The position numbers and the translations under genes were made by a program. A DNA stretch of 64,000 bases from Actinomycetales bacterium (GTDB taxonomy: Bacteria > Actinomycetota > Actinomycetes > Actinomycetales > CAVURS01): positions 3,054 to 67,053 of the forward strand of contig JBJMHS010000061.1 in NCBI GenBank assembly GCA_045807245.1, in the 5' to 3' direction. The notes under the pieces are model-generated. The model saw only the letters and a list, made by a program, of their open reading frames with translations, was not told where the DNA came from and did not search any database. Positions 41,060 to 61,435 of this stretch are shown here, piece by piece; position 1 is the stretch's first letter; every line of letters begins with the position of its first letter.

Positions 41060-41061
41060 CC

Positions 41062-41868
41062 GTGCCTGCCGCGGGGGTCATGGGTTCGCCGATCGCTCAC
41101 TCGCTCTCGCCGGCCCTGCATCTCGCGGCGTACCGCAGCCTCGGCCTGCCCTGGACGTACGTCGCCCGCGAGGTCGACGAGGCGGCGTTGCCCGAGGCGC
41201 TGGCCGGGTTGGGCCCGGACTGGGTGGGGGTCTCACTGACGATGCCGCTGAAGCAGGCCGTGCTGCCGCTGCTCGACGAGGTCAGCGACCTGGCCCGGGA
41301 CGTGGGTGCCGTCAACACGGTGACGTTCGGGCCCGGCGCCTGGCGGTCCGGGGACAACACCGACGTGTACGGGATCACGGCTGCCCTGCGGGCCGCTGGG
41401 GTCGAGGATGGCCGGGGGGCGGTCGTCCTCGGGGGCGGCGCCACCGCCGCATCCGCGGTGGCCGCGCTGCGCGAGCTGGGTGAGCAGACCGCGACGCTCG
41501 TGGTCCGGTCCCGCGAGCGGGCGAGGGGTGTCGAGGCGGCGGCCGAGCGGCTCGGGGTGCGCGTCCGGCTGGCGTCGTGGGACCAGGCCGGCCCGCTGGC
41601 GGCCTGCGCACCCGTCGTGGTCAGCACCGTGCCACCGGGTGCCGCGGACCGGATCCGGCTCAACGTGTCGACGGCCGGGGTGCTGCTGGACGTGGTCTAC
41701 CGCCCGTGGCCGACCGCCCTGGCCGGCGCCTGGCAGCGCGCGGGTGGGGTCGCCGTACCCGGTCTGGAGATGTTGGTGCACCAGGCGGCCGCCCAGGTGA
41801 GGGCCTGGACGGGCGAATGGCCCGATCTGCAGCAAATGATGCGTGCCGCCCAGGCTCAGACCGCCTGA
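41062..41868 (+). CDS. aroE: Shikimate dehydrogenase
   Basis: GSPIAHSLSPALHLAAY, GVSLTMPLK, VNTV...GDNTD and the GGGATAASAV Rossmann motif. GTG at 41062 within the longer ORF. Confidence 0.85.
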   Translation: MPAAGVMGSPIAHSLSPALHLAAYRSLGLPWTYVAREVDEAALPEALAGLGPDWVGVSLTMPLKQAVLPLLDEVSDLARDVGAVNTVTFGPGAWRSGDNTDVYGITAALRAAGVEDGRGAVVLGGGATAASAVAALRELGEQTATLVVRSRERARGVEAAAERLGVRVRLASWDQAGPLAACAPVVVSTVPPGAADRIRLNVSTAGVLLDVVYRPWPTALAGAWQRAGGVAVPGLEMLVHQAAAQVRAWTGEWPDLQQMMRAAQAQTA

Positions 41869-42001
41869 GCGACGGAACGTTGGCAAAGGCTCGTCAAGCC
41901 GGGCGGGCAACGCGCCGATAGGCCATTTGGTGGTCCCCTCCCCGCGTCGCCATGGCGTGGAGGTCAGTCGTGGGACCTGGGGCGGGAGGGGCCAGCAAGC
42001 C

Positions 42002-43660
42002 ATGCAGCTGAGCGACATCTTGCTGAACGACGGCCTCGTCAACGAGACCCAGCTCGCTGCTGCCTACGACGAGCACCAGAAGGACGGCCGCAGCCTCGGA
42101 CGGGTGCTGGTCGACCAGGGCGTGCTGTCGGAGTCGCAGCTGGTCGCGGCTCTGGCCCAGCAGGTCGGTCTGCCGTTCGTCGACCTGACCGAGTACAACG
42201 TCGACGGCTCGGCCATCGGGCGGGTCCCCGGCGGCGTCTGCCGCCGGCACGTGGCCCTGCCGATCGCCTACGAGGACGGCCGCCTGCTCGTGGCGATGGC
42301 CGACCCGGGCAACGTCTTCGCCCTCGACGACTTCCGGTCCATCACCGGCATGGACGTCCGTCCGGTCGTTGCGACCAAGGGCGACGTCCTGGCCGCCATC
42401 GACCGCTACTACCGCGCCGACGCGGACATGGACGACATCACCAGCGCGATGGAGGTCGAGGAGGACGACGACCTCTCCAACGTCCGCGAGGTGGTCGAGG
42501 ACGCCCCGATCGTCAAGTACGTGAACCTGCTCATCACCCAGGCCATCCAGGACCGCGCGTCCGACATCCACATCGAGCCGACCGAGCACGACCTGCGCGT
42601 GCGCTACCGCATCGACGGTGTGCTGCACGAGGTCATGCGCTCGCCGCGTGCGATCCAGTCCGGTGTCACGTCCCGCCTGAAGATCATGGCCGACATCAAC
42701 ATCGCCGAGCGCCGCATCCCCCAGGACGGCCGGCTCTCGGTGAACGCGCACGGCAAGAAGATCGACCTCCGCGTGGCCACGTTGCCGACGGTGTGGGGCG
42801 AGAAGGTCGTCATGCGTGTCCTCGACAACTCGACGGCACGGCTCAGCCTGGACGACCTCGGCTTCGGCGCTTCGAACTACACGCGCTACTCGAAGAGCTT
42901 CACCAAGCCCTACGGGATGATGCTCGTCACGGGCCCGACCGGGTCGGGCAAGTCGACCACGCTGTACGCCACGCTGAACATCGTCAGCAAGCCCGAGGTC
43001 AACGTCATCACGGTCGAGGACCCGGTCGAGTACCGCCTGCCCGGCATCAACCAGGTGCAGACGAACACCAAGGCCGGCCTCACCTTCGCCTCGGCGCTGC
43101 GCTCGATCCTGCGGTCCGACCCCGACGTCGTCCTGATCGGTGAGATCCGTGACCACGAGACGGCACAGATCGCCGTCGAGGCCGCGCTCACCGGTCACCT
43201 CGTGCTCTCCACGCTGCACACCAACGACGCCCCGAGCTCCATCACCCGGCTGACCGAGATGGGCATCGAGCCCTTCCTCGTCGGCTCCGCGCTCGACTGC
43301 GTGCTGGCCCAGCGCCTCACCCGCCGCCTGTGCGACAAGTGCAAGGAGGCCTACCAGCCGGACGCGGAGCTGCTCGAACGGGTGGGTTACCCCTGGACGC
43401 CGGCCGACCAGATCCCCACCCTCTTCCGCGCGGTGGGATGCTCCGCCTGCTCCAAGACGGGCTACAAGGGCCGGATCGCTCTGCACGAGGTCATGGAAGT
43501 GACCGAGGAGATCGAGCGGCTCACCGTCGAGCGCGCCTCGGCGGCGGCCATCGGTGAGATCGCCCGGGCCCAGGGCATGCTCACCCTGCGCCAGGACGGC
43601 ATGTCCAAGGTCGGACAGGGCGTCACCTCCATCGAAGAGATCCTGCGCGTCGTCGTCTGA
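42002..43660 (+). CDS. pilB: Type IV pilus assembly ATPase PilB (GspE family)
   Basis: T2SSE_N-type N-domain, Walker A VTGPTGSGKSTT, Asp box, Walker B VLIGEIRD, His box STLHTNDA, tetracysteine CDKC...CSAC. Confidence 0.92.
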   Translation: MQLSDILLNDGLVNETQLAAAYDEHQKDGRSLGRVLVDQGVLSESQLVAALAQQVGLPFVDLTEYNVDGSAIGRVPGGVCRRHVALPIAYEDGRLLVAMADPGNVFALDDFRSITGMDVRPVVATKGDVLAAIDRYYRADADMDDITSAMEVEEDDDLSNVREVVEDAPIVKYVNLLITQAIQDRASDIHIEPTEHDLRVRYRIDGVLHEVMRSPRAIQSGVTSRLKIMADINIAERRIPQDGRLSVNAHGKKIDLRVATLPTVWGEKVVMRVLDNSTARLSLDDLGFGASNYTRYSKSFTKPYGMMLVTGPTGSGKSTTLYATLNIVSKPEVNVITVEDPVEYRLPGINQVQTNTKAGLTFASALRSILRSDPDVVLIGEIRDHETAQIAVEAALTGHLVLSTLHTNDAPSSITRLTEMGIEPFLVGSALDCVLAQRLTRRLCDKCKEAYQPDAELLERVGYPWTPADQIPTLFRAVGCSACSKTGYKGRIALHEVMEVTEEIERLTVERASAAAIGEIARAQGMLTLRQDGMSKVGQGVTSIEEILRVVV

Positions 43661-43821
43661 CGCCCCTCGCGCTCGGTCGCGAACACGAACGGACTAACCC
43701 GTCCGTCGTACTCAAGCGCCACAGGCAGCAGGCCGATAGCCCATCCGAGGCGGCATGTCCGTCGCCCGACCGACCAGCGAACGAGCTCGCAGCGACAAGG
43801 GTCGCTTACGAGGGGAGACCC

Positions 43822-45081
43822 GTGGACAGCTACGGCCAGTCGAACGGCGCGTACGTGCCCGACAACTACGCGTACACCGCCGACTCGAGCGCAGCGTCCG
43901 CACGGGTGCCGCACCAGGCGGGACCGGCGACCAGCGTGGCCATCGACGAGGACGACATGGACATGGCCGGCGCGTCGTACCGCCGGGCCAGCACGGAGCG
44001 GCGGGCCGAGGTCGGCGACCTGAACCTGCACGACCTGCTGATCACCGTGCTCGACCGCAAGGCGTCCGACCTGCACCTCACCGCTGGCGCACTGCCGACG
44101 CTGCGGATCAACGGCGAGCTCGTCCCGATGGAGGACTTCGAGCCGCTGAGCCCGGCCGAGCTGCAGCGCGTGCTGTTCGCGGCGCTCACCCAGAAGCAGC
44201 GCGAGCGCTTCGAGGCCGAGCTCGAGCTGGACCTGAGCTACTCGGTGCCGGGCAAGGCTCGGTTCCGGGTCAACGTGTACCGCCAGCGTGAGGCGATCGG
44301 GGCGGCCTTCCGCCTGATCCCTTACGAGATCAAGCCACTCGACGCCCTCGGCATCCCGCCGGCGGTCAAGAACTTCTCCGGCCTGCCGCGTGGCCTGGTC
44401 CTCGTGACCGGTCCGACCGGTTCCGGCAAGTCGACGACGCTGGCCGGCCTGATCGACCTGGCCAACCGCACCCGGCACGACCACATCATGACCGTCGAGG
44501 ACCCGATCGAGTTCCTGCACCGCCACAAGTCCTGCCTGGTCAACCAGCGCGAGGTCGGCGAGGACACGCACTCGTTCGCGGCCGCGCTCAAGCACGTGCT
44601 GCGCCAGGACCCGGACATCATCCTGGTCGGTGAGATGCGAGACCTGGAGACGATCTCGGTGGCCCTGACCGCGGCCGAGACCGGCCACCTGGTCTTCGCC
44701 ACCCTGCACACGCAGGACGCCGCCCAGACCATCGACCGCGTCATCGACGTCTTCCCGGCCGAGCAGCAGGAGCAGGTGCGCGCGCAGCTCGCCGGCGCCG
44801 TCCAGGGCGTCGTCTGCCAGACGCTGTGCAAGACGGCCGACGGCAAGGGCCGGGTCGTCGCCACCGAGGTGCTGGTCGCGACGCCGGGCGTCCGCAACCT
44901 GATCCGCGAGGGCAAGACGCACCAGATCTACTCGGCGATGCAGGCCGGCGCCCAGCACGGCATGCACACGCTGGACCAGCACCTCGCCGAGCTGGTCCGC
45001 ACCAACCAGATCACGTACGAACACGGTCTGGAGAAGTGCCACCACGTCGAGGACTTCAACCGCCTGCTCGGCCGGATCTAG
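43822..45081 (+). CDS. pilT: Type IV pilus retraction ATPase PilT
   Basis: ASDLHLTAG, Walker A VTGPTGSGKSTT, ILVGEMRD, FATLHT and the PilT signature PGVRNLIREGK. The GTG 43822 start (SD GAGGGGA) gives a ~66-aa N-terminal extension. Internal ATGs offer a shorter alternative. Confidence 0.92.
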   Translation: MDSYGQSNGAYVPDNYAYTADSSAASARVPHQAGPATSVAIDEDDMDMAGASYRRASTERRAEVGDLNLHDLLITVLDRKASDLHLTAGALPTLRINGELVPMEDFEPLSPAELQRVLFAALTQKQRERFEAELELDLSYSVPGKARFRVNVYRQREAIGAAFRLIPYEIKPLDALGIPPAVKNFSGLPRGLVLVTGPTGSGKSTTLAGLIDLANRTRHDHIMTVEDPIEFLHRHKSCLVNQREVGEDTHSFAAALKHVLRQDPDIILVGEMRDLETISVALTAAETGHLVFATLHTQDAAQTIDRVIDVFPAEQQEQVRAQLAGAVQGVVCQTLCKTADGKGRVVATEVLVATPGVRNLIREGKTHQIYSAMQAGAQHGMHTLDQHLAELVRTNQITYEHGLEKCHHVEDFNRLLGRI

Positions 45082-45105
45082 CCGGACCTAAGAGGAGCTC
45101 CAGCC

Positions 45106-46326
45106 ATGACCATGACGAAGTACGAGTACGCGGTCCGCGACAAGTCCGGCAAGCTCGTCAAGGGCACGCTCGACGCCGAGAACCAGGGCCAGGTCGTCGC
45201 CAAGCTGCGCACGATGGGCTTCGCGCCCGTCAGCATCAGCGAGACGAACTCCGGGATGAAGAAGGAGATCACGATCCCCGGCTTCAGCAACCGGGTGAAG
45301 CTGAAGGACCTGGCGATCATGTCCCGCCAGTTCGCGACCATGATCTCCTCCGGCCTGTCCCTCCTGCGAGCGCTGACCATCCTCGCCGAGCAGACCGAGA
45401 ACAAGGAGCTGGCGCGCGTCCTCGGGCTGGTCCGCTCGGACGTCGAGGCCGGGCAGTCGCTCTCCTCGGCCCTCGCCAAGTTCCCCAAGGTCTTCCCCCC
45501 GCTCATGGTCAACATGTGCCGGGCCGGTGAGGTCGGTGGCTTCCTCGACGGCGTGCTGCTGCAGATCGCGGAGAACTACGAGGCCGAGGTCAAGCTGCGC
45601 GGCAAGATCAAGTCGGCGATGACCTATCCCACCGTGGTGTTCTGCATTGCGATCGTCGCGGTCATCGGCATGCTGCTGTTCATCGTCCCGGTGTTCGCCA
45701 AGATGTTCAAAGACCTGGGCGGTACCTTGCCGGCGCCGACGCGGGTCCTGGTCGAGCTCAGCGCGATCGTGAAGTACGGCTTCCCGTTCATGCTGGTGGG
45801 CGTCATCGCGCTGTTCATCACCTGGCAGCGGGTCAAGCACAAGGACGCTGTCCGGGCGGTCTTCGACCCGTTGAAGCTCAAGGTCCCGGTGTTCGGCAAC
45901 CTGTTCCAGAAGGTCGCGCTGAGCCGGTTCAGCCGCAACCTGGGCACGATGCTTCGTTCCGGCGTACCGATCCTGCAGTCGCTGGACATCGTCGCTTCGA
46001 CCACGGCGAACGTCGTTCTCGAGCGTGCGGTACGCGACGTCCAGGAGAGCGTACGGCGCGGCGAGTCGCTCGCGGGGCCGCTGGCTCAGCACAAGGTGTT
46101 CCCGCCCATGGTCGTCCAGATGCTCGCCATCGGCGAGGACACAGGAGCCATGGACACGATGCTCGAGAAGATCGCCGAGTTCTACGACCAAGAGGTGGAG
46201 GCCACGACCGAGGCGCTGACCAGCCTGATCGAGCCGCTCATGATCGCGGTCCTCGGCAGCATCATCGGGTCGATGATCATCGCCCTCTACATGCCGATCT
46301 TCAAGGTCTTCGACCTCATCAAGTAG
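45106..46326 (+). CDS. pilC: Type IV pilus platform protein PilC (GspF family)
   Basis: 406 aa with two T2SSF repeats (FSRQFATMISSGLSLLRAL; FSRNLGTMLRSGVPILQSL) and 3 TM segments. Confidence 0.92.
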   Translation: MTMTKYEYAVRDKSGKLVKGTLDAENQGQVVAKLRTMGFAPVSISETNSGMKKEITIPGFSNRVKLKDLAIMSRQFATMISSGLSLLRALTILAEQTENKELARVLGLVRSDVEAGQSLSSALAKFPKVFPPLMVNMCRAGEVGGFLDGVLLQIAENYEAEVKLRGKIKSAMTYPTVVFCIAIVAVIGMLLFIVPVFAKMFKDLGGTLPAPTRVLVELSAIVKYGFPFMLVGVIALFITWQRVKHKDAVRAVFDPLKLKVPVFGNLFQKVALSRFSRNLGTMLRSGVPILQSLDIVASTTANVVLERAVRDVQESVRRGESLAGPLAQHKVFPPMVVQMLAIGEDTGAMDTMLEKIAEFYDQEVEATTEALTSLIEPLMIAVLGSIIGSMIIALYMPIFKVFDLIK

Positions 46327-46528
46327 TCGCTCGACTCGGGCCGGAAGAGTGGCCACCCACGCACGGTCACCCTTTCGGCGTAGTCGAAAAAGTCATGACG
46401 ATTGCCCCGTTCGGACGCTCAAGCCCGCGCGGCAGAAGTCGATAAACCACCTGTAAGCGAGCCGTGCCTCCCGAACATGAACCGGGCACCGCGGGCGGCT
46501 CCGTCTCATAACAGAAAGGGAGCAGCAG

Positions 46529-46975
46529 ATGCTCGCTCGCATCCGCAAGTCGATGGAGGAGAAGGACCAGGGCTTCACCCTGATCGAGCTCCTCGTCGTC
46601 ATGATCATCATCGGCATCCTGGCCGCCATCGCGATCCCGGTCTTCTTGAACCAGCGCGCCAAGGCCCGTGACACCTCGACCAAGGCCGACGTGTCCACGC
46701 TGGGTAAGGAGGTCGCGACGTACTTCGTTGACGGCACTGGCACGCTGACCGCGACGCAGGCCGGCGGCGCCGGCACCGACATCACCCTCGGCGACGGTGC
46801 GGCGACCAACCCGTACACCACCGTCATCAAGGTGAGCAACGGTACGACCCTGGGCACCGGCAAGAACCTGAACAGCTCGACCACCTGGTGTGTCGCTCTG
46901 TCCAACGCGAACGGCTCGGTCAAGAACTACTACTACTCGGCTGCCGCTGGCCTCAACGCCGGCACCTGCCCGTGA
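46529..46975 (+). CDS. pilA: Type IV pilin (class III signal peptide), copy 1
   Basis: The leader ends KDQG, then FTLIELLVVMIIIGILAAIAIPVF (Glu5). C-terminal Cys pair (TWCVAL...GTCP). SD AAAGGGAG upstream. A strong hairpin follows. Confidence 0.9.
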   Translation: MLARIRKSMEEKDQGFTLIELLVVMIIIGILAAIAIPVFLNQRAKARDTSTKADVSTLGKEVATYFVDGTGTLTATQAGGAGTDITLGDGAATNPYTTVIKVSNGTTLGTGKNLNSSTTWCVALSNANGSVKNYYYSAAAGLNAGTCP

Positions 46976-46996
46976 TCTAGCGCTTGACCACTACGG

Positions 46997-47023
46997 ATGG
47001 GCGGCCCCTTGCGGGCCGCCCAT
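46997..47023 (+). terminator. Hairpin terminator/attenuator after pilin copy 1
   Basis: Perfect 11-bp stem ATGGGCGGCCC / GGGCCGCCCAT with a 5-nt loop, 22 nt after the stop. Confidence 0.6.
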
Positions 47024-47143
47024 TCGTGCGTCGTAGGCGTGCGCCGCGCGGGTGAGATGTGCCCGTGCGCCCTCAAGGTGCCGAGCGCGCAGCCGACAGA
47101 CACAGCAAGGCCTCCACTTTCCCTGAGCCATGCAGAGGACACG

Positions 47144-47572
47144 ATGCTTCGCAAGAGCCTGCGGGCAACGCGTGACGACGACGGCTTCACCCTGATCGAG
47201 CTGTTGGTCGTCATGATCATCATCGGGATCCTTGCGGCCATCGCCATCCCGGTGTTCCTCAACCAACGGGCCAAGGCCCGTGACACGGCGGTGAAGGCCG
47301 ACGTCTCCCGGTTGGGCAAGGAGGTTGCGACGTACTTCGTCGACGGCACCGGCACCCTGTCGCTGGACTTCGCCTCCACTCCTGGCTCGGTCGTGCTCAT
47401 GGACGGCGCGGCGACGGTCACGACCGTCCAGCTGACCACAGGAACCAGCTCCAGCACGGCCACGGGCCTCGGCCTGCCGACCGGTTGGTGTGTCTCGCTG
47501 ACGAACGCGAGCGGCATGCAGAAGACCTTCCAGTACTCGGCCGCCAGTGGTCTCAAGACCGGCGCCTGCTAA
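47144..47572 (+). CDS. Type IV pilin, copy 2
   Basis: The leader ends RDDDG, then FTLIELLVVMIIIGILAAIAIPVFLNQRAKARDT, identical to copy 1. C-terminal Cys pair (GWCVSL...GAC). The variable middle differs from copy 1. Confidence 0.88.
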   Translation: MLRKSLRATRDDDGFTLIELLVVMIIIGILAAIAIPVFLNQRAKARDTAVKADVSRLGKEVATYFVDGTGTLSLDFASTPGSVVLMDGAATVTTVQLTTGTSSSTATGLGLPTGWCVSLTNASGMQKTFQYSAASGLKTGAC

Positions 47573-47597
47573 CCGGATCGGCGAGAGAGGAACAACC

Positions 47598-48872
47598 GTG
47601 GTCGATCGGCCGCCTCGCGCGGACGAGGGCTTCAGCATGATGGAGGTCCTCGTGGCCGCCATGATCTTCGCCCTTGCCGCGACCGTGCTCGCCGGCGTCT
47701 TCATCAAGACGCTCGGGCTGGCGCAGAGCAACACGCAGCGGACCACCGCTGCGAACCTCGCGACCCAGCAGATGGAGAAGCTGCGCGCCATGGACGCGAC
47801 GCAGATCCCCGACGGTCAGACCACGATCGGTCCGGTCACCGTCGGCGGCACGTCGTACACGCTCACGCAGTACGTCGAGCTCAAGACCCAGGACGGTACG
47901 GCGTGCGTCGGGACCGGCACGGAGCTGACGGCCAAGCAGATCACGGTGCTCGTGACCTGGCCGAACCAGGGCGCCGTGAAGCCGGTCCGCAGCGACACGA
48001 TCCGGACCCTGAACTCGACCGACGACGTGGTCACGGCGTCGAAGGGCGCGTTGGCCGTCACCGTCCAGGCTGCCGACGGCACGGGCACGGCGAGCATCCC
48101 GGTCACGCTCACCACGTCGACCGGCACCTTCGTCCAGACCCTGACGTCGGGTGTCGACGGCTGCGTCGTCTTCACCGGCCTGGCGCCGGGCAGCTACCTG
48201 GCCAACGCCAACACGATGAACTACGTCGACCAGGACGGTGACCAGTCGACGTCGAGTACGGCGCTCGGCGTTACTGCGAACACGATCGCCAAGGGCGTCT
48301 TGCCCTACGACCTGCTAGGCGGCATCGCGATCACACCTCAGACACCGGACGTGAACTACCCGGTCCCGAGCGCCGTCGGCCTCACGCTGACCACCTCGGT
48401 GTGGTCGCCCAGCCAGAACCGGCCGTACGTCACGTGCGTAGGCGCGACCGTGTCGGGTTGTGTGTCCGGGACCTCGCTTCGGAACGCCTCGTCCCTGTTC
48501 CCGGCCAAGTACGGCGCCTGGGCCGGCACCTGCTCGGACGCCGCGACACTGGCCGGCACGCCGACCCTCGCGACGGTCAAGAGCGGGAACACCACGTCGT
48601 ACACCGTGTCGAACTTCGGCCGGGCCCGCGCGGTCATCGGCCCGCTCGTCGTGGGCGGCCCGCACCTGTACGCGGTGCACGCGGCCGACGCGGTCTGCCC
48701 GTCAGGTGAGATCTACGACCTCGGCACGGTCACGGCCGGCCAGACGGTCAACACCGCGCTGCCGTGGGGAACCTGGCGCCTGCAGCTGACCACCACGGGC
48801 GTCCCCACAACGCAGACGGTGAGCCTGTCCAGCGGCGTCTCGTCGCCGCAGACGGTGACGGTGCTCCTATGA
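47598..48872 (+). CDS. Large minor pilin, PilV-like N-domain with C-terminal beta-sandwich extensions
   Basis: Prepilin motif ADEG/FSMMEVLVAAMIFALA (Glu5), then TAANLATQQMEKLRA. A carboxypeptidase-regulatory-like segment VTVQAADGTGTASIPVTL...GCVVFTGLAPGSY follows. ~424 aa. GTG at 47598. Confidence 0.75.
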   Translation: MVDRPPRADEGFSMMEVLVAAMIFALAATVLAGVFIKTLGLAQSNTQRTTAANLATQQMEKLRAMDATQIPDGQTTIGPVTVGGTSYTLTQYVELKTQDGTACVGTGTELTAKQITVLVTWPNQGAVKPVRSDTIRTLNSTDDVVTASKGALAVTVQAADGTGTASIPVTLTTSTGTFVQTLTSGVDGCVVFTGLAPGSYLANANTMNYVDQDGDQSTSSTALGVTANTIAKGVLPYDLLGGIAITPQTPDVNYPVPSAVGLTLTTSVWSPSQNRPYVTCVGATVSGCVSGTSLRNASSLFPAKYGAWAGTCSDAATLAGTPTLATVKSGNTTSYTVSNFGRARAVIGPLVVGGPHLYAVHAADAVCPSGEIYDLGTVTAGQTVNTALPWGTWRLQLTTTGVPTTQTVSLSSGVSSPQTVTVLL

Positions 48873-49561
48873 CCCGCCTGCACTCGGCTCTCCGGCGTGT
48901 CCGGGCCGGTCACGGCTCTCCGGACTCGGGTATGAGCCTCATGGAACTCATCATCGCGATGGCGGTGGCCTCGATCGTGCTGCTCGGTGTCGGCACGTTG
49001 TTCGTCAGCAGCCTTCGTCAGAACCGCACGGTGATGGCGAAGACGACGACCACGGCCGACGCCCGCATCGGCATGGAGGCGATGACGCGTGACCTCCGCG
49101 TCGCGGTCGTTCCCTCGGGTGGCACCAGCCCGTTCAACTCGCCTGTGGGCACACCGGTCAGCTCCTCGCGGATCAGCGTGTACAGCAGCCTGGGTGCCGT
49201 CACGGGCACCACGGACCCGCAGCCGACGCTGGTGACGTTCTACTACGACTCGACGAAGAAGTGCCTGGTCCGGGAGCTGACGCCGTCCAGCGGCTCTCTT
49301 ACGTGGACCTGCATCGCTCGCGGGACCATCAACGCCAGCGGCGACGCGCTCTTCACGTACTACCCCCTTGCGGCGGACGGAACCGTGAGCACCACGCCGT
49401 ACGCCCCCTCGGCCATCACCAGCAACCTCCCGACGATTGCGAGCGTCGCCATCAACCTCCAGGTCAACGACCCCGCCAACCCCTCGGTGCTGCCGACCAA
49501 GCTCCAGGACCAGGTTTCCATGATCAATATCGTCACCGCGCTGCAGGCAGGTGTGTCGTGA
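48869..49561 (+). CDS. Minor pilin, PilW-like
   Basis: Prepilin motif PDSG/MSLMELIIAMAVASIVLLGV (Glu5), then ADARIGMEAMTRDLRVA. ATGA overlap with the upstream stop. Confidence 0.7.
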   Translation: MTRLHSALRRVRAGHGSPDSGMSLMELIIAMAVASIVLLGVGTLFVSSLRQNRTVMAKTTTTADARIGMEAMTRDLRVAVVPSGGTSPFNSPVGTPVSSSRISVYSSLGAVTGTTDPQPTLVTFYYDSTKKCLVRELTPSSGSLTWTCIARGTINASGDALFTYYPLAADGTVSTTPYAPSAITSNLPTIASVAINLQVNDPANPSVLPTKLQDQVSMINIVTALQAGVS

Positions 49562-51159
49562 GAGCTCTCCGCCCGTTCCGGCTCGGTTCCGGCGCTGATG
49601 ACGAGGGCATGGTCCTCGTCGGCGTCATGGGCGCGATGATGGTGCTGTCCGCGTTCGCGCTGGCGACGCTGGGCTACGCGCTGCAGAACTCGCAGCCGAA
49701 CCGCAAGGACCAGGACGCCAAGGCGGCCGTGGCCGCTGCCCAGGCAGGCATCGACGACTACCTGTCGCGGCTCAACAGCGACCCGAGCTACTACACGTTC
49801 ACCGACTCGACCAACGTTGCGTTCACCAGCGGCAAGCCGGCATCCGGCACGGTCGGCCAGGGCGCGACGTTCAAGTACTCAGTCCTGAGCAGCGTCGCCA
49901 CGACGGTGTCGCAGGGCTACATCCGGATCAAGTCCACCGGAACGATGAACGGCGTGACGCGCACCTTGAGCGCGCGGCTGAACCCCAACGGGTTCCTGCA
50001 GTACATCTACCACACGGACAAGGAGGACCAGGACCCCGTCCTGTACTCCGGCGGCAGCGCCACCATCGAGGCGAAGTGCAACCAGTACTACTACTACAGC
50101 TCGGCCACCAAGCCAGGCCGCAGCTCGTACTCGCCGGACCCGTGTCGCGAGATCCAGTTCACGACCGGCGACACGATCAACGGCCCGATGCACACCAACG
50201 ACGCCATGCAGATCAACGGCTCGATCCTCTTTACGAGCCCGAAGACCGAGACTAGCTGGGTCACGGCACAGACCAACAAGTGGTGGGGCTCCGGCACGCC
50301 GAGCACCTCGGGCTACAAGCCGGTCTACGCGGCGCCGGTGCAGATCCCACCGTCGAACGCCAGCCTGCTGGCGAACGCGACGACCGCCGGCTGCGTGTAC
50401 TCGGGAGCCAGCAAGATCACCTTCACCAGCGATGGCAAGATGACGGTGCTCAGCCCGAACACCACGGCGTCGTCGACCTGCTACCCCGCTGGCGCCAACA
50501 AGGCCACCCCAGTCGTCGGGATCACCATCCCACCCGTGATGTACGTGCAGGACTTCAGCGGCACGTGCGCGAAGAACAGCAGCGGCGTGACCATCACGCT
50601 CGGCTACCCGCTCTCGGGCGAGCTTCCGACGACGGACGCGAGCTACACCGGTCCCGACTACTCGTGCAACAAGGGGACCGCGTACGTCTCTGGCACGCTG
50701 AACGGGACGTCGACCATCGGCTCGGCTCAGGACATCGTGGTGGTCAGCAACCTCCTGTACAACGACAAGTCGACGACCAGCGACGACCTGCTCGGCCTGG
50801 TCCCGACCCACTTCATGTGGATCTACCACCCGGTGAACACGAGCGACGCGAACATGCTGAGCACCCCGGTCACGGAGGTCGACGCCGCCATCCTCGCCGT
50901 GTCGGACAGCTTCATCGTCCAGAACTACAACCTCGGAGCGCCCATCTCGTCCGGGTCGACGAACAAGCTCACGGTGTTCGGTGCGATCGCGCAGAACTAC
51001 CGGGGTCCGGTGGGCACCGGTACGACGACCGCGGCCTCGACGGGCTACCTGAAGAACTACAACTACGACACCCGGTTCGCGCGCGGCGCCCAGCCGCCGT
51101 ACTTCCTGCAGCCCGTGTCCACGCAGTGGACCGCCGGCCAGATCAGCGACGGCAACTGA
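49558..51159 (+). CDS. Large PilX_N-like pilus-associated protein (no Glu5)
   Basis: GTGA overlap upstream. N-terminus DDEGMVLVGVMGAMMVLSAFALATLG has Gly at +5. The ~533-aa Ser/Thr/Asn-rich body includes GDTINGPMHTNDAMQINGS. Confidence 0.6.
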   Translation: MRALRPFRLGSGADDEGMVLVGVMGAMMVLSAFALATLGYALQNSQPNRKDQDAKAAVAAAQAGIDDYLSRLNSDPSYYTFTDSTNVAFTSGKPASGTVGQGATFKYSVLSSVATTVSQGYIRIKSTGTMNGVTRTLSARLNPNGFLQYIYHTDKEDQDPVLYSGGSATIEAKCNQYYYYSSATKPGRSSYSPDPCREIQFTTGDTINGPMHTNDAMQINGSILFTSPKTETSWVTAQTNKWWGSGTPSTSGYKPVYAAPVQIPPSNASLLANATTAGCVYSGASKITFTSDGKMTVLSPNTTASSTCYPAGANKATPVVGITIPPVMYVQDFSGTCAKNSSGVTITLGYPLSGELPTTDASYTGPDYSCNKGTAYVSGTLNGTSTIGSAQDIVVVSNLLYNDKSTTSDDLLGLVPTHFMWIYHPVNTSDANMLSTPVTEVDAAILAVSDSFIVQNYNLGAPISSGSTNKLTVFGAIAQNYRGPVGTGTTTAASTGYLKNYNYDTRFARGAQPPYFLQPVSTQWTAGQISDGN

Positions 51160-51207
51160 GCCGCGGGCTCACGCACTGTCAACTCGCACTGACCTAGGCT
51201 GACCGGA

Positions 51208-51987
51208 ATGTGGCTCGTGACGGTGTTCTGCGCCGTCGTCGGGCTGGCGATCGGCTCGTTCCTCAACGTCGTCATCTGGCGCGTGCCGAGGGACGAGTCC
51301 GTCGTCCGGCCGCGGAGCCACTGCCCGTCCTGTGGCAACCCGGTGCGCCCGTACGACGACATCCCGGTCGTCAGCTGGCTCGTGCTGAGGGGCCGCTGTC
51401 GCGACTGCGGCCAGCCGATCAGCATCCGCTACCCGCTCGTCGAAGCCGGGACGGCGGTCCTGTTCGGCGTGACCGCCTGGCATTTCGGGCTGTCGTGGGA
51501 GCTGCCGGCGTACCTCTACCTGATCGCGATAGGCGTCGCCCTCGCGCTCATCGACATCGACGTCCACCGCTTGCCCAACGCGATCGTGCTGCCGTCGTAC
51601 GTGGTCGCACCCGTCCTGCTCACCGTGGCGTCACTGGGTGACGGCGACTGGGCAGCCTTGGTACGAGCCGCGATCGGCGGCGCAGCACTCTACGTCCTGT
51701 ACTTCCTGCTCCGCCTGGCCTACCCGAGCGGCATGGGGTTCGGCGACGTAAAGCTGGCCGGCGTGCTCGGGATGTACCTGGGGTGGCTCGGGTGGGGGCC
51801 GCTCGCCGTAGGAGCCTTCCTCGGGTTCCTGCTCGGCGGCGTCGTCGGTGGTGCGCTGATGGCAGCCAACCGCGCCAGCCGGAAGTCGAAGATCCCGTTC
51901 GGTCCGTTCATGATCGCCGGCGCCTATGTCGCCGTGCTCGTGGGCGCGCAGATCAGCGACCTCTATCTCGACCTGTTCGTGGGCTGA
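51208..51987 (+). CDS. pilD: Prepilin peptidase (A24 family) PilD
   Basis: CPSCGNPV...CRDCGQPI zinc motif, catalytic Asp motifs LIDIDVHRLP and GFGDVKL, multiple TM segments. Confidence 0.93.
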   Translation: MWLVTVFCAVVGLAIGSFLNVVIWRVPRDESVVRPRSHCPSCGNPVRPYDDIPVVSWLVLRGRCRDCGQPISIRYPLVEAGTAVLFGVTAWHFGLSWELPAYLYLIAIGVALALIDIDVHRLPNAIVLPSYVVAPVLLTVASLGDGDWAALVRAAIGGAALYVLYFLLRLAYPSGMGFGDVKLAGVLGMYLGWLGWGPLAVGAFLGFLLGGVVGGALMAANRASRKSKIPFGPFMIAGAYVAVLVGAQISDLYLDLFVG

Positions 51988-52141
51988 ACCGGGGATGTCG
52001 CCCGGCCCGCACACCCGTTCGGCCTAGTCAACGGGCCAATCCGAGCGGTTGTCCTCAAGACCCTTGGGACAGGCACCGATCACCCCTTTGACGCAGCCCT
52101 GCCTGGGCTTTGCGAAGTGTCTTCGCGGAAGGGGATACGAC

Positions 52142-53194
52142 GTGGCTGGACGCACTGCCATCGGTCTCGACATCGGGACCTCCGGCGTTCGCGCGGCCGA
52201 GCTGTCGTTCGGCAAGGGTGGTGTCACTCTCGAGAGGTTCGGCCAGATCGCCGTGCCCGAGGGGGCAGTCCGGGACGGCGAGGTCATCGACACGGCGGCG
52301 GTCGCGCACGCGATCAAGCAGCTGTGGTCGCACACCCGCTTCTCGCACAAGAACGTCATCATGGGCGTGGCCAACCAGCGAGTGATCGTCCGGCAGGTCG
52401 ACCTCCCGTGGATGCCGATCGCCGAGCTGAAGGAGTCCCTGCCCTTCCAGGTCCAGGACTTCCTGCCGATGCCGGTCGACCAGACGCTGCTCGACTTCCA
52501 CCCGCTCGAGGAGGTCCAGGGCGCCGGCGGCGCGCGGCTGCTGAGGGGTCTGCTGGTCGCTGCGGCTCGGGAGATGGTCCTGTCGAACGTCCGCGCGGTC
52601 GAGCAGGCCGGTCTCAAGCCGACGATGGTCGACCTGACGTCGTTCGCGGTCCTGCGGTCGGTGGCCAACATCGGCGTCGTCGACAACGAGATCGAGGCGC
52701 TCGTCGACATCGGCGCGCGCGTGACGAACATCGTCGTGCACAGTGGCGGCGTCCCACACTTCGTCCGGATCCTGCTCATGGGCGGCCAGGACGTCACCGA
52801 CGCGGTGGCGAACAACCTGGGTGTCTCGCACGAAGAGGCCGAGGCGCTCAAGCACGAGCTCGGCAGCGGCTCGCACTCCGACAGCGCCGCTGCGGCCGGC
52901 CGGGTGGCCGACGTCACCGCGGCGACGCTCGTGGACGAGATCCGCGGCTCACTCGACTACTACATGTCCTCGACACCGCACGGTCCCGTCCAGCGGGTCG
53001 TCCTGACCGGCGGTGGCTCACGCCTCCGTGGCCTGGTCGACCGCATGGCCGCGTCCACGCGCGTGCCGGTTGTCGTCGGCGACCCGCTGGGGTCGCTGCA
53101 CCTGGGTCGCACCGGTCTGACGGATGACCAGGTCCGCCATGTCCAGCACCTCGCCGCAGTGCCGGTGGGTCTCGCGCTAGGAGCCTCTTCATGA
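52142..53194 (+). CDS. pilM: Type IV pilus assembly protein PilM (actin-like ATPase fold)
   Basis: IGLDIGTSGVRAAEL...VIMGVANQRVIVRQVDLP...DIGARVTNIVVH...VVLTGGGSRLRGL. GTG at 52142 with SD GGAAGGGGA. Confidence 0.9.
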   Translation: MAGRTAIGLDIGTSGVRAAELSFGKGGVTLERFGQIAVPEGAVRDGEVIDTAAVAHAIKQLWSHTRFSHKNVIMGVANQRVIVRQVDLPWMPIAELKESLPFQVQDFLPMPVDQTLLDFHPLEEVQGAGGARLLRGLLVAAAREMVLSNVRAVEQAGLKPTMVDLTSFAVLRSVANIGVVDNEIEALVDIGARVTNIVVHSGGVPHFVRILLMGGQDVTDAVANNLGVSHEEAEALKHELGSGSHSDSAAAAGRVADVTAATLVDEIRGSLDYYMSSTPHGPVQRVVLTGGGSRLRGLVDRMAASTRVPVVVGDPLGSLHLGRTGLTDDQVRHVQHLAAVPVGLALGASS

Positions 53195-53865
53195 GCCGCA
53201 CGAGTGTCGACTCCGTCGAGTCGCTCGCGACCGGTCGGGCAACGCTGCCCCGGGTCAACCTCCTGCCCCCCGAGGTCCACCAGGCGCGTCAGCTGCGTCG
53301 TCTCCAGGCCGGTCTGGGAGTCGGTGTCGCGGCCGTGGCGCTCGCCGTCGGCGGTTTCTACTTCCTGCAGACGCAGGCTGCCGGCGACGCGCAGGAGAGC
53401 CTGAACCAGGTGGCGGCCAAGGGCTCGACGCTCACCGCGCAGAAGGCGCAGTACGCGCAGGTGCCGAGGACACTGTCCGCGATCGAGGCGGCCGAGTCGG
53501 CCCGGCAGAACGCCATGGCGAACGACGTGCAGTGGTACCGGTACCTCAACGACCTGAGCTACGTCACGCCGAAGAACGCGTGGTTCCTCACGGTGGACAT
53601 CTCGCTGAACCAGTCCGGCGTGGTCAACGTGAACCCGGTGGCCCACGCGTCCATCGCCACGGTCACCGTCACGGGCGCTGCCAAGGTGCACAACGACGTC
53701 GCCTCGTGGTTGAACTCCGCGTCCAAGGAGTCCGGCTGGACGGACGCGTACTTCACCAACTCACAGAAGCAAGACATGAACGGTGAGACCTTCGTCCAGT
53801 TCAGCAGCACCGCGAACGTGACGGACGACGCTCTCTCCCACCGCTACGACCGGAAGGCCGGCTGA
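53191..53865 (+). CDS. pilN: Type IV pilus assembly protein PilN
   Basis: VNLLPPEV motif, one TM segment and a coiled coil. ATGA overlap with the pilM stop. Confidence 0.8.
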   Translation: MSRTSVDSVESLATGRATLPRVNLLPPEVHQARQLRRLQAGLGVGVAAVALAVGGFYFLQTQAAGDAQESLNQVAAKGSTLTAQKAQYAQVPRTLSAIEAAESARQNAMANDVQWYRYLNDLSYVTPKNAWFLTVDISLNQSGVVNVNPVAHASIATVTVTGAAKVHNDVASWLNSASKESGWTDAYFTNSQKQDMNGETFVQFSSTANVTDDALSHRYDRKAG

Positions 53866-53866
53866 C

Positions 53867-54553
53867 ATGTCCAACACCCGACCCTGGATCTTGGGCGCTG
53901 CTGCGCTGAGCGTCCTCTTGGCGGTCGCGGGCTGGTTCCTGCTGATCTCTCCGGAGCGCAGCAAGGCGGCCGACCTCAAGAGCCAGCGCACCGCGCAGGT
54001 CGCCCAGAACCAGCAGCTGCAGCTCGACATCGCGCAGCTGAAGGCCCAGAACGAGAGCCTGCCGGCCAAGCAGGCTGAGCTGGCCAAGATCAAGCAGCAG
54101 CTGCCGAGCAACCCGGCCCTGCCGGCCTTCATCCGCGGTCTGACCTCGATCGCGGGCCAGTCGGGCGCCGGCCTCACCTCGGTGTCCCCGGGCCAGCCCA
54201 TCTCGCTCGCCGCTCAGTCCACTGCTGCCGGTGCGGCGGCAGCGCCGGCCGGTCTGGTGGCGCTCCCTGTCACGGTCGTCGTGGACGGCAGCTACGCGCA
54301 GAGCGAGCTGTTCCTGCAGAAGCTCCAGACGGCGATGACGCGGGCCTTCCTCGTCCAGAAGCTGTCCATCGCAGCGCTCGACACGGGGTCGCTGTCCAAC
54401 AGCACGCCCCCCACGCCGTCCGGCAACCTGCTCCGCACCACGATCAGCGGACAGATCTTCGTGTTGCAGGACCAGGCCGCCGCTGTGAGCGGCGCAGCCG
54501 GTGCGGCGGGAACGCCGTCGGGCACCACCACGACCACCGCACCGGCGAGCTGA
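53867..54553 (+). CDS. pilO: Type IV pilus assembly protein PilO
   Basis: N-terminal TM segment, coiled coil (QLQLDIAQLKAQNESLPAKQAELAKIKQQL), and a C-terminal ferredoxin-like segment VTVVVDGSYAQSELFLQKLQ. Confidence 0.75.
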   Translation: MSNTRPWILGAAALSVLLAVAGWFLLISPERSKAADLKSQRTAQVAQNQQLQLDIAQLKAQNESLPAKQAELAKIKQQLPSNPALPAFIRGLTSIAGQSGAGLTSVSPGQPISLAAQSTAAGAAAAPAGLVALPVTVVVDGSYAQSELFLQKLQTAMTRAFLVQKLSIAALDTGSLSNSTPPTPSGNLLRTTISGQIFVLQDQAAAVSGAAGAAGTPSGTTTTTAPAS

Positions 54554-54564
54554 AGGGCTGACCG

Positions 54565-55239
54565 ATGAGCATCATGAGCGGAACCACACAGACGGCGCCG
54601 GCGCCCCCGGCCCCTCCGGTCGATGAGCCGAAGTCGGCTGCCAACGGTCGGCAGCGGCTGTACCTGCTGGTCGGCGGCGGGCTCGCCCTCGTCGTCGTCG
54701 CAGCTCTTGCGTACTTCTTCCTGCTCAGCGGGTCGGACGACGCGAACACCGGCGCGACCATCGCCCTTCCGGCGCCCAAGGCGTCGGCTAGCCCCAGCGC
54801 GTCCGCCGCGCCGGCCGCGCCGCCGCTGAAGACGTTCGCCGGCCAGACAGCCCGCAACCCGTTCAAGAGCCAGGCCCCCGTGGCCGCCGGCTCCGGCGGC
54901 ACGGGCACCTCCAGCGACGTGGCCAACTCGGGTAACACCGGCACGAGCGGCTCCACAGGCTCCGGCACCGGTACGGCGACCGCGCCGTCCGTCTCGTCCG
55001 TCCCGCTGGTCCTGACCCTGAAGAGCGTCAGTGGCACGTCGGGCGCCACCGTCTGGGTCTACAACAAGAGCACCAAGAAGACGGCGCACTACTCGCCCCA
55101 GATCGGTGACACGTTCGGCACGTACTTCCGCTTGACCGGCTTCCTCACCGACACCAGCTCGGGCGACAAGGCGGCCTTGGTCGAGTACGGCGACACGATC
55201 CTGACGCTGTTCCCGGGGACGTCCTCGACGGTGCAGTAA
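54565..55239 (+). CDS. Membrane-anchored PilP-like protein (functional assignment tentative)
   Basis: One TM segment (LYLLVGGGLALVVVAALAYFFLL), an Ala/Pro/Ser linker with ARNPF (PilP-type R-[DNS]-PF motif), a Gly/Thr/Ser tract, and a C-terminal beta segment ATVWVYNK...PQIGDTFGTYFRLTGF...ALVEYGD. It is the last gene of the pil cluster. Confidence 0.45.
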   Translation: MSIMSGTTQTAPAPPAPPVDEPKSAANGRQRLYLLVGGGLALVVVAALAYFFLLSGSDDANTGATIALPAPKASASPSASAAPAAPPLKTFAGQTARNPFKSQAPVAAGSGGTGTSSDVANSGNTGTSGSTGSGTGTATAPSVSSVPLVLTLKSVSGTSGATVWVYNKSTKKTAHYSPQIGDTFGTYFRLTGFLTDTSSGDKAALVEYGDTILTLFPGTSSTVQ

Positions 55240-55276: not shown

Positions 55277-55319
55277 AGCATGAGGCCGATCCTCCACATG
55301 GGAGGATCGGCCTCATGCT
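55277..55319 (+). other. Perfect 19-bp hairpin covering the aroC SD and start codon (possible pil-operon terminator / translational occluder)
   Basis: AGCATGAGGCCGATCCTCC - ACATG - GGAGGATCGGCCTCATGCT. The right arm contains GGAGGA and the aroC ATG (55315). A smaller hairpin GTCCGG/CCGGAC lies at 55251-55272. Confidence 0.7.
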
Positions 55320-56511
55320 TCGCTGGATCACCGCGGGCGAGTCGCACGGACCCGCGCTGGTCGCGGTGCTGGAAGGCCTCCCGGCCGACGTCGCCGTCAC
55401 GACCGACGTCGTCGCGGCAGCGCTCGCCCGTCGACGCCTCGGGTACGGCCGCGGGGCGCGGATGTCGTTCGAGCAGGACGTCGTCGAGCTGACCGGCGGG
55501 GTCCGGCACGGCCGGACGATGGGCGGCCCGGTCGCCATCAGGGTGGGCAACAGCGAGTGGCCCAAGTGGGAGCTCGTGATGAGTGCGGACCCGGTGCCGG
55601 AGGATGAGCTCGCCGACCTCGCGCGCAACGCGCCGCTGACCAGGCCACGTCCCGGTCACGCCGATCTGGTGGGGATGCAGAAGTACGGGTTCGACGACGC
55701 CCGGCCGGTGCTCGAGCGGGCCAGTGCGCGCGAGACTGCGGCACGGGTCGCCCTCGGCTCGGTCGCCTCTGCGTTCCTCGACCAGGCGTTCGGCATCCGT
55801 CTGGTCTCCCACACGGTCTCGGTGGGTTCGGCGGCCGTGGACGACGGCGCCGAGCTCCCGACGCCGGGGGACGTCGACGCGCTGGACAGGGACCCGCTCC
55901 GGGCGTTCGACGCGGCCGGCTCGGCCCGTATGGTCGAGGAGGTCGAGGCGGCCCGTCGCGACGGGGACACCTTGGGTGGTGTGGTCGAGGTGCTGGCGTA
56001 CGGCCTGCCGCCGGGTCTGGGCAGCCACGTGCACTGGGACCGGCGCCTGGACTCGCGCCTGGCGGGTGCGCTGATGGGCATCCAGGCCATCAAGGGCGTC
56101 GAGGTCGGCGACGGGTTCCGCACCGCGGCCCGGCGGGGCTCGCAGGCCCACGACGAGATCGAGCGCGGACCGGACGGGGCGCTCCGGCGCCGGTCCGGAC
56201 GCGCGGGCGGCACCGAGGGCGGCATGTCGACCGGCGACGTGCTGCGCGTCCGTGCTGCGATGAAGCCCATCTCCACCGTGCCGCGCGCGTTGGACACGGT
56301 GGACGTCACGAGCGGCGAACCGGCCAAGGCGATCAACCAGCGGTCCGACGTGTGCGCCGTACCCGCTGCGGGTGTCGTGGCCGAGGCGATGGTCGCGCTG
56401 GTGCTGGCCGACGCCTGTCTGGAGAAGTTCGGCGGCGACTCGGTGGCGGAGAGCGCTCGCAACTGCCGGACCTACCTGGAGTGCCTGCCGGAAGCGCTGA
56501 GGGCACGGTGA
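55315..56511 (+). CDS. aroC: Chorismate synthase
   Basis: [32 protein letters not shown], and the GGMSTG segment. Confidence 0.96.
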
Positions 56512-58126: not shown

Positions 58127-58271
58127 GGCTCGCCGGCGCGCCGGCGAACACGCACAACGGGTAGGTCCGGCCCTCAGGCGAGCCCATTCCGCTCATTGCG
58201 CCTGTTTCGCCCGAGTCGGGCCTGTGGACAGCGCGCCTCAGACAGAGTTGCGAGCACGCAGACTCAGCCGC

Positions 58272-61343: not shown

Positions 61344-61395
61344 AGATCCGTTCCCTCCCGTGAGACCCACGTCCCTGGTGGGTCCGGCCCGTCGC

Positions 61396-61435
61396 GGTGA
61401 CGCACCGTGTTCGGGCTATCGTCACGGAGCGTGAT
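61396..61435 (-). promoter_or_regulatory. Candidate BldD auto-operator boxes
   Basis: GTCACGGAGCGTGAT (61421-61435) has one mismatch to the published BldD box pattern nTnACnC(A/T)GnGTnAn. GTGACGCACCGTGTT (61396-61410) has two mismatches. Both lie 50-95 nt upstream of the bldD start. Confidence 0.35.

Follow-up and report, generated by a model that had tools for sequence, protein, structure and literature searches.

Type IVa pili of the Actinobacteria are known from genome surveys (PMC6668835), and according to a 2019 review the Tad-type was then the only one of the phylum's pili to have been studied experimentally (PMC6916266). Zoospores of Actinoplanes missouriensis adhere to hydrophobic surfaces by means of type IV pili (Kimura 2019, cited in PMC12871210). 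According to PMC12871210, type IV pilus clusters are under confirmed WhiG-family control in Actinoplanes and Rubrobacter and under predicted WhiG/FliA control in Cellulomonadaceae, Sanguibacteraceae, Jonesiaceae and Cryptosporangiaceae, and WhiG is itself controlled by cyclic di-GMP (c-di-GMP) and RsiG. Here we examine a cluster of 13 pil-type genes at positions 42002-55239 of a 64-kb stretch of DNA (the window) from a metagenome-assembled genome (MAG) of an Actinomycetales bacterium. The cluster is a further member of the known and widespread actinobacterial type IVa pilus system, and these pili and their WhiG control are already published. Our reading, to which we give a probability of about 0.75, is that it would encode an autonomous, WhiG/FliA-controlled, retractile monoderm type IVa pilus for attachment, conserved in the slot between aroE and aroC. 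We found no paper on pil genes with aroE, aroC, aroK or chorismate synthase in Actinobacteria or Clostridia, and none on type IV pili of Cellulomonas.

The WhiG/FliA-controlled pili of the Actinoplanes and Rubrobacter type come from the same phylum as the window, and share with it the set of pilB, pilT, pilC, pilin, pilD, pilM, pilN and pilO genes, the lack of a secretin and promoter motifs of the sigma-28 family ahead of pil genes. Loci of the Micromonosporaceae are orthologous to the window cluster (identities of ~61% for PilD, 57% for PilB and 62% for PilT), but in L052, L057, L058, L061 and L070 the aro genes are not downstream, pilC and pilD are separated by one pilin gene, and an insertion splits pilM from pilN. 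The Kineosporiales-like lineage of the window is not among the families with WhiG/FliA-controlled pili that are listed in the accessible part of PMC12871210. The type IVa pili of Firmicutes (Clostridium perfringens, C. difficile and Streptococcus sanguinis) are similar in having clustered pil genes, no secretin and a PilM-PilN-PilO scaffold, and also in the long leaders of their pilins, in retraction by PilT and in having more than one pilin of the major type (PMC6916266). They further share an MshEN-type domain on PilB. PilB2 of C. perfringens reportedly binds c-di-GMP. The Firmicute systems differ in belonging to another phylum; a sigma-28/WhiG promoter architecture is unreported there, and the thirteenth gene of the window cluster (orfX) is unrelated to their accessory genes.

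Gene families were assigned using Pfam and NCBIfam profiles. The starts of pilA2, the three minor pilin genes and pilM were revised from ribosome-binding sites, 4-nt overlaps and G+C content at the third codon position (GC3). Thirteen intact, full-length genes on the plus strand fill the interval, comprising pilB, pilT, pilC, two pilin genes, three minor pilin genes, pilD, pilM, pilN, pilO and orfX (Table 1). The core observation of the original prediction, the presence of this gene set, is therefore confirmed, and Pfam bears out the flanks it had given, i.e. mltG and aroE upstream and aroC, aroK and aroB downstream. Its retraction ATPase is also present, with a TIGR01420 score above the cut-off and the PilT signature GVRNLIRE. 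The lack of pilQ was correctly noted, in that secretin families gave no match in the open reading frames (ORFs) of the cluster or in the other window ORFs scanned against Pfam (9.4-11.1, 16.6-17.7 and 61.5-64 kb lay outside that scan). The absence of PilQ is expected for a monoderm. Judged by its sequence, the interval holds a complete type IVa-type pilus machine in monoderm form, with PilT and with no secretin in the window. The genes had been described as mostly coupled. This is correct for some of them, but gaps of 134-202 nt precede pilB, pilT, pilA1, pilA2 and pilM, and each of these contains a promoter motif.

The sequences in these five larger gaps are of the type (C)TCAAG-N15-GCCGAT(A/C)(A/G). 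The published consensus for actinobacterial WhiG/FliA promoters is T(A/C)AA-N16-GCCGATAA and CTCA-N16-17-GCCGAACT (PMC12871210). We scanned the 200 bp ahead of start codons for T(A/C)AA-N16-GCCGA or CTCA-N16-17-GCCGA, tolerating a single mismatch provided that it fell outside the CGA. The window has five matches to the exact published form, of which three are in pil gaps; allowing one mismatch gave 20, which include all five gap sites. The predicted sites lie 45-84 nt upstream of the five genes. A loose pattern, TCAA-N15/16-GNCGANA, which was written with three of the sites already in view, matched four times on the two strands of the 64 kb where 0.29 would be expected, and all four matches are in pil gaps. 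The motif recurs in relatives. Over 82 related loci, examined to 250 nt upstream of each gene, it was found before pilM in 61/82, pilA1 in 41/55, pilB in 17/31 and pilT in 9/24. The corresponding values for control genes were 0/80 for pilD, 1/75 for pilN, 3/51 for aroC and 2-3 of ~50 for the aro genes, and on the opposite strand there were 0-1 matches for the four pil genes and up to 6/52 elsewhere (aroK). No sigma factor gene was found among the ORFs of the 64-kb window scanned against Pfam. These predicted signals suggest that a sigma-28-family factor controls the cluster as an autonomous regulon of several units.

Two inverted repeats capable of forming stable hairpins mark probable unit boundaries, after pilA1 and before aroC (Table 1). 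The latter is unique in the window, and its 3' arm contains the Shine-Dalgarno sequence of aroC (GGAGGA) as well as the ATG at 55315. In the relatives perfect hairpins of at least 11 bp occur after pilA1 in 19/34 loci, after pilC in 16/61 and before aroC in 16/51, compared with 0.9% of random windows. Their sequences differ between loci, as expected of structural elements, and the hairpin before aroC usually ends 30-50 nt ahead of the ATG. In the window, translation of aroC should be blocked on every transcript that carries the 5' arm of the 19-bp repeat. It is possible that aroC is expressed from a leaderless or short-leader start inside the repeat.

Table 1. Genes, predicted promoter motifs and hairpins of the pil cluster and its flanks, in window coordinates.
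Feature	Position	Strand	Properties
mltG	39920-41059	+	upstream flank
aroE, shikimate dehydrogenase	41040-41868 (start approximate)	+	Shikimate_dh_N 1.5e-24, SDH_C; upstream flank
WhiG/FliA-type motif before pilB	41894-41921	+	TCAA-N16-GCCGATAG; exact consensus match; 81 nt before ATG
pilB, extension ATPase	42002-43660	+	Pfam T2SSE 474 bits, 2.9e-142; MshEN 84.5 bits, 5.1e-24
WhiG/FliA-type motif before pilT	43712-43739	+	TCAA-N16-GCCGATAG; 83 nt before GTG at 43822
pilT, retraction ATPase	43822-45081	+	GTG start; TIGR01420 489.7 bits (> 319.1)
pilC, platform protein	45106-46326	+	two T2SSF (PF00482) copies, 224 bits, 3.8e-67
WhiG/FliA-type motif before pilA1	46418-46445	+	CTCA-N16-GTCGATAA; 84 nt before ATG
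pilA1, probable major pilin	46529-46975	+	N_methyl 1.1e-09; TIGR02532; leader MLARIRKSMEEKDQG/FTLIE; C-terminal Cys pair
Terminator-like hairpin, just 3' of pilA1 stop	46993-47027	+	inverted repeat; -42.5 kcal/mol, z = -4.8
WhiG/FliA-type motif before pilA2	47072-47099	+	CTCA-N16-GCCGACAG; 45 nt before ATG at 47144
pilA2, second pilin	47144-47572	+	N_methyl 1.5e-09; G/FTLIE leader; C-terminal Cys pair
Minor pilin 1, PilV/GspI-like N-terminus	47598-48872	+	leader MVDRPPRADEG/FSMME; N_methyl 20 bits; TIGR02523 PilV 2.5e-06; weak SdrD_B
Minor pilin 2, PilW/GspJ-like	48869-49561	+	leader ...SPDSG/MSLME; N_methyl 23.9 bits; weak PRK10557, HpsC
Large pilin-like protein, PilX/GspK-like	49558-51159	+	533 aa; leader ...ADDEG/MVLVG, no Glu5
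pilD, prepilin peptidase	51208-51987	+	A24_N_bact (PF06750) 127.6 bits, 1.9e-37; Peptidase_A24 (PF01478) 46.8 bits, 4.5e-12
WhiG/FliA-type motif before pilM	52055-52082	+	TCAA-N16-ACCGATCA; one mismatch in -10 element
pilM, actin-like cytoplasmic component	52142-53194	+	PilM_2 3.8e-52; TIGR01175 194.5 bits (> 133)
pilN	53191-53865	+	PF05137 28.7 bits (> 22.8); 4-nt overlap with pilM stop
pilO	53867-54553	+	PF04350 28.8 bits (> 22)
orfX, bitopic membrane protein	54565-55239	+	224 aa; transmembrane helix at residues 29-55, disordered linker, 85-aa all-beta C-terminal domain
Perfect 19-bp inverted repeat between orfX and aroC	55277-55319	+	5-nt loop; 100% complementary; -61.7 kcal/mol, z = -8.3
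aroC	55315-56511	+	Chorismate_synt 1.9e-109; downstream flank
aroK	56520-57053	+	SKI 1.3e-38; downstream flank
aroB	57050-58126	+	DHQ_synthase, DHQS_C; downstream flank

The extension ATPase PilB, whose start at 42002 is backed by GC3, has an N-terminal MshEN domain (PF05157) of the c-di-GMP-binding type and a C-terminal CxxC...CxxC motif. The best NCBIfam match of the protein is TIGR02538, which aligns end to end with 673.2 bits, and the c-di-GMP motif NF053729 is found in residues 3-54 (51.4 bits, cut-off 38). Taken together with the published control of WhiG by c-di-GMP and RsiG, the MshEN-type domain suggests two levels of c-di-GMP input, the second being at the PilB motor itself. The retraction ATPase PilT has the Walker A sequence GPTGSGKST and Walker B DPDIILVGEMRD. 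Its N-terminal extension of ~65 amino acids (43822-44020) has a GC3 of 0.95, indicating that it is coding, and the sequence is not conserved; tblastn alignments of relatives begin at residues 63-68, and the lengths of PilT as called range from 426 amino acids in L002 to 524 in L003. The best NCBIfam matches of PilC are to the Thermus and Myxococcus types.

PilA1 and PilA2 are nearly identical over the first ~60 residues of the mature proteins and have diverged in their C-terminal domains, and each gene carries its own sigma-28-type promoter motif. Paired pilin genes are also found in the relatives L004, L012, L020, L038, L043 and L055. This suggests that PilA1 and PilA2 are alternative or mixed major pilins. 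Class III signal peptides (G followed by F/M-x-x-x-E) with an N_methyl match are found in both proteins and in minor pilins 1 and 2, while the third minor pilin has no Glu5. The genes for minor pilin 2 and the large pilin-like protein each have a start codon that overlaps the preceding stop codon (ATGA and GTGA respectively). The large protein gave no match in Pfam or NCBIfam, and orthologs occupy the same position in relatives, that of L002 having a faint match to DUF4900. Subunits of the PilX/GspK type lack Glu5. The large Glu5-less protein is possibly a tip subunit. In PilD the Cys-rich N-terminal A24_N_bact domain corresponds to the methyltransferase region of PilD-type enzymes, and the motifs GDVKLAG and IDIDV.RLP are invariant in the PilD alignment. 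The GTG start of pilM is indicated by its ribosome-binding site GGAAGGGGA and by a jump in GC3 from 0.68 to 0.90.

The gene following pilO had been termed PilP-like, a label that we could not sustain. In position and architecture there is a resemblance, for orfX matches the pattern of membrane anchor, disordered linker with R-x-P-F and small beta-domain, encoded right after pilO. Family alignments reveal a long, disordered linker rich in Ala, Pro, Gly and Thr with a conserved R-[N/D]-P-F-K motif; the orfX family has GRDPFKALI or ARNPFKS where Myxococcus xanthus PilP has GKRDPFRSPI. The C-terminal domain is predicted to have seven beta strands (AlphaFold2 pLDDT 92.6). The anchor is a transmembrane helix in orfX, whereas in PilP it is a lipid. 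Homology with PilP found no support, as there was no match in Pfam (E<=10), NCBIfam or a PDB sequence profile, Foldseek against the PDB was negative with models of both the full-length protein and the domain, and hhalign against a PilP alignment made from PDB chains gave a probability of ~1%. Furthermore orfX is present in a subset of relatives only. It is missing from clusters of the Cellulomonas, Sanguibacter and Actinotalea type, where aroC begins 130-230 nt past pilO. We therefore regard the likeness to PilP as an analogy. The orfX product may be a lineage-specific accessory protein that performs a PilP-like job.

These components suggest how the pilus could be made and used. PilD would remove the leaders from PilA1, PilA2 and all three minor pilins and, judging by its N-terminal domain, may N-methylate these proteins as well. 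The minor pilins would prime the filament, with the large Glu5-less one probably at the tip. PilB, acting on PilC and the PilM-PilN-PilO scaffold, would then polymerize pilins through the cell wall with no need of a secretin, and depolymerization by PilT would retract the pilus. The orfX protein is probably a lineage-specific bitopic partner of PilN/PilO. The predicted promoters and hairpins divide the cluster into about five putative transcription units, i.e. pilB; pilT-pilC; pilA1; pilA2-minor pilins-pilD; and pilM-pilN-pilO-orfX. Each would begin at a predicted WhiG/FliA motif, with hairpins after pilA1 and before aroC. Given such motifs at each unit, expression is most likely tied to a motile or dispersal program, as in Actinoplanes zoospores, with the MshEN-type domain of PilB as a possible second point of action for c-di-GMP. 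Most likely the pilus would serve for attachment to surfaces once swimming has ended, and retraction would permit twitching or surface sensing. The function had been described as open and experimental work as sparse. This is mostly true, but adhesion by the Actinoplanes zoospore pilus and WhiG control are already in the literature (PMC12871210).

The distribution of the cluster was examined by a scan of one genome per species using the PilD alignment. Over 583 relatives were obtained in this way, and the genes of the best 80 of them were mapped by tblastn. Seventy loci with at least 3 kb of downstream sequence are informative for that side, and in 55 of these the pil genes are directly followed by aro genes. 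Such clusters are found in Cellulomonas, Actinotalea, Pengzhenrongella, Sanguibacter, Angustibacter, Motilibacter and a Kineosporiaceae MAG, in MAGs of Acidothermaceae, Frankiales and Mycobacteriales, and in Kineococcus (aroK and aroB only). On the upstream side aroE directly precedes the cluster in 14 of the 27 loci with at least 1.2 kb of flank beyond the first pil gene. Two large metagenomic assemblies (67-73% identity in PilD) have the same row aroE-pilB-pilT-pilC-pilins-pilD-pilM-pilN-pilO-(orfX)-aroC-aroK-aroB-aroQ-efp-nusB-bldD. The nearest named relative by PilD among the best 80 is Angustibacter, at 67-70% identity, pointing to a Kineosporiales-like lineage for the window. The layout of the aroE-aroC interval is thus shared by several families, but it is absent in Micromonosporaceae (Dactylosporangium, Virgisporangium, Spirilliplanes, Catenuloplanes and Rugosimonospora), Microbacteriaceae and Modestobacter, which together with one Sanguibacter and some MAGs make up the 15/70 loci where the cluster sits elsewhere. 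The simplest reading is that the cluster is chromosomal and vertically inherited in place within the class Actinomycetes.

Some of these loci have peculiarities of their own. In four from Kineococcus (L044, L049, L053 and L055) aroE is followed by ~1.2 kb with no pilB homolog and then by pilT, and two unrelated ORFs of 400-530 amino acids take the place of aroC between pilO and aroK. Either pilB and aroC have moved elsewhere or the pilus cluster there is incomplete. Clusters of the actinobacterial type also occur on contigs labeled 'MAG: Brevundimonas sp.' (L032, with the row from pilB to aroQ) and 'MAG: Bifidobacterium breve' (L062, 7.3 kb), both of which are probably mis-binned.

A different account of expression is that the pil genes are co-transcribed with aroE and aroC-aroK-aroB from housekeeping promoters, with the motifs and hairpins being incidental. 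The genes from alaS to nusB are all on one strand, the intervals to aroE and aroC are short (134 nt and 75 nt), and the essential aro genes downstream need transcription yet have little room for a promoter past the hairpin. A generic scan of the window for sigma-70 promoters and U-tract terminators found none, a result that is uninformative for high-G+C DNA. Against this account, the motifs are conserved across families at the same four or five gaps and absent before pilD, pilN, pilO and the aro genes, and strong hairpins recur in structure after pilA1 and between the last pil gene and aroC. Moreover, experiments in other actinobacteria have confirmed that WhiG controls type IV pilus clusters (PMC12871210). 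We consider this account improbable. The phrase 'nested in the shikimate operon' from the original prediction is accordingly right about the position between aroE and aroC, and not about an operon, given the five promoter motifs of the cluster's own and the hairpins before aroC. The composition of the DNA might instead suggest an island recently acquired into the aroE-aroC gap by horizontal transfer. Total G+C is 0.655-0.684 in the cluster and ~0.72 outside, the GC skew switches sign, type IV filament systems are often transferred (PMC6668835), and the 15 clusters that sit elsewhere could be seen in the same light. Yet in GC3 the pil genes (0.83-0.94) do not differ from the flanks. The lowered G+C must therefore arise at codon positions 1 and 2, i.e. 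from amino acid composition, and we rejected it as a sign of transfer. The pairwise distances found for PilT, PilC, PilD and PilM follow those of AroC and AroB (Spearman 0.48) as closely as AroC and AroB follow each other (also 0.48). No integrase, tRNA or direct-repeat boundary appeared in the ORF and Pfam survey. Because GC3 matches the flanks, the slot is conserved and the pil and aro distances co-vary, a recent island is very unlikely, in agreement with the earlier view.

The machine might serve mainly for DNA uptake in competence, or be a secretion pseudopilus, rather than act in adhesion or motility. Many species rely on type IVa pili for transformation, the E. coli hofMNOPQ genes beside aroK-aroB are annotated as DNA utilization genes, and the ComGA, ComGB, GspE and GspF models do match. 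All four matches are below threshold (256 < 300, 145.5 < 240, 604.5 < 630.25 and 375.2 < 424 respectively), and all score less than the PilB, PilC and PilT models. PilT and PilM-PilN-PilO are present, comEA, comEC and GspC, D, L and M are not found among the Pfam-scanned window ORFs, and the sole actinobacterial pilus of this kind to be studied experimentally mediates adhesion (PMC12871210). A principal role of this type thus seems unlikely, although the pilus may have some part in DNA uptake. A Tad pilus received no support, the TadB/C and Flp families being unmatched in the Pfam scan of the cluster and flanks. Nor do we think that the cluster is a silent or decaying relic, for which we see very little chance. 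The loss of pilB and missing aroC at the Kineococcus loci, the dispensability of orfX in many lineages and the rapid evolution of the minor pilins and PilN/PilO (25-45% identity) could be taken to favor decay, but the 13 ORFs are full length with high GC3, their Walker and peptidase motifs and pilin leaders are intact, and the promoter motifs are conserved in relatives.

Several observations weigh against an autonomous, WhiG/FliA-controlled retractile pilus. At one mismatch there are 15 matches to the promoter motif outside the pil gaps, mostly inside genes, so the motif alone is unspecific and the case for it is built on where the sites lie, on their strand and on conservation between species. 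No U-tract accompanies the hairpins, and hence termination at them is something that we infer. The hairpin before aroC would sequester the ribosome-binding site of that gene, which the model leaves unexplained. The score of PilB falls 2.4 bits under the equivalog cut-off of TIGR02538 (675.65), and the Kineococcus relatives without pilB at the locus indicate that some copies of the cluster are incomplete. Lastly the window covers 64 kb of the MAG, and whiG/fliA, flagellar genes or a distant secretin may lie outside it.

The neighborhood of pil and aro genes extends beyond the phylum. E. coli K-12 (L084) has hofM-N-O-P-Q-aroK-aroB in the same order and orientation, and Pseudomonas (P. aeruginosa) and Neisseria have pilMNOPQ-aroK-aroB. 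In such diderms the arrangement pilM-pilN-pilO-(one or two genes)-aro is that of the window. They have the PilP lipoprotein and PilQ secretin where the window has orfX, with no detectable homology to PilP. In the window aroC is inserted ahead of aroK, the opposite end is bounded by aroE, and pilB, pilT, pilC, the pilin genes and pilD are all in the same block, whereas in diderms they are scattered. The gene orders of E. coli, Pseudomonas and Neisseria make it plausible that the linkage beyond the phylum is ancient. In actinomycetes without the pilus (Streptomyces, Corynebacterium, Mycobacterium) the gap from aroE to aroC may still contain a solitary A24 peptidase gene. A bolder proposal, which we regard as doubtful, is that pilM-pilN-pilO-(x)-aro(C)K-B is a gene-order relic predating the split of Actinomycetota and Pseudomonadota, that the one-block aroE-aroC state of actinomycetes is nearer to the ancestral one with later dispersal in diderms, and that essential aro genes downstream, behind a hairpin, might pin the cluster in place. 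The very old syntenic association proposed originally holds within the class Actinomycetes; beyond the class it is plausible from the E. coli order and from the cases of Pseudomonas and Neisseria.

The surroundings of the cluster are mostly those of an ordinary actinobacterial core. Upstream, the Pfam-scanned ORFs include ald, a parA-like gene, scpA/B, chorismate mutase, tyrA, cmk, plsC, pgsA and gcvH, a garA-like gene, MerR regulators, gcvP, sbcCD, mgsA, alaS, ruvX and mltG, and downstream they include aroQ, efp, nusB and bldD. The last encodes a homolog of BldD, a family of c-di-GMP-binding developmental regulators (HTH and BldD-like C-terminal domain), at 60834-61415 on the minus strand just past nusB; it is kept in that place in L002 (20273-20767) and L003 (19439-19927), a few kb downstream of the pil cluster. 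Between aroB and aroQ an ORF at 58098-59456 has a weak DUF559/REase-like match (22 bits), overlaps the start of aroQ (59237) and has an atypical G+C by codon position (0.68 at the second position), so it may be a decayed gene. The same gap contains an AbiEi/AbiEii toxin-antitoxin pair on the opposite strand in L002 (17173-18598) and is empty in L003, and looks like a small insertion hotspot. Far upstream, three tandem PF04185 phosphoesterase paralogs (phospholipase C/acid phosphatase type) lie beside a 610-amino-acid ORF with no Pfam match at 11097-15937 on the minus strand, the part of the window lowest in G+C (0.68-0.69).

Most of what is known of type IVa pili in Actinomycetota comes from genome surveys and one experimental system, the Actinoplanes zoospores. 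The pil-aro neighborhood, as in E. coli, is a neat case on which to test how gene order is conserved over the very long term, and leaves the understanding of such machines unchanged. The main addition to what had been noted earlier is the map of promoter motifs and hairpins. Besides the RsiG-WhiG switch, the MshEN-type domain of PilB suggests that the motor itself is controlled. The conserved map of 13 genes, about five sigma-28-type promoters and terminator-like hairpins could guide genetics in the easily grown Cellulomonas, Sanguibacter, Angustibacter and Motilibacter.

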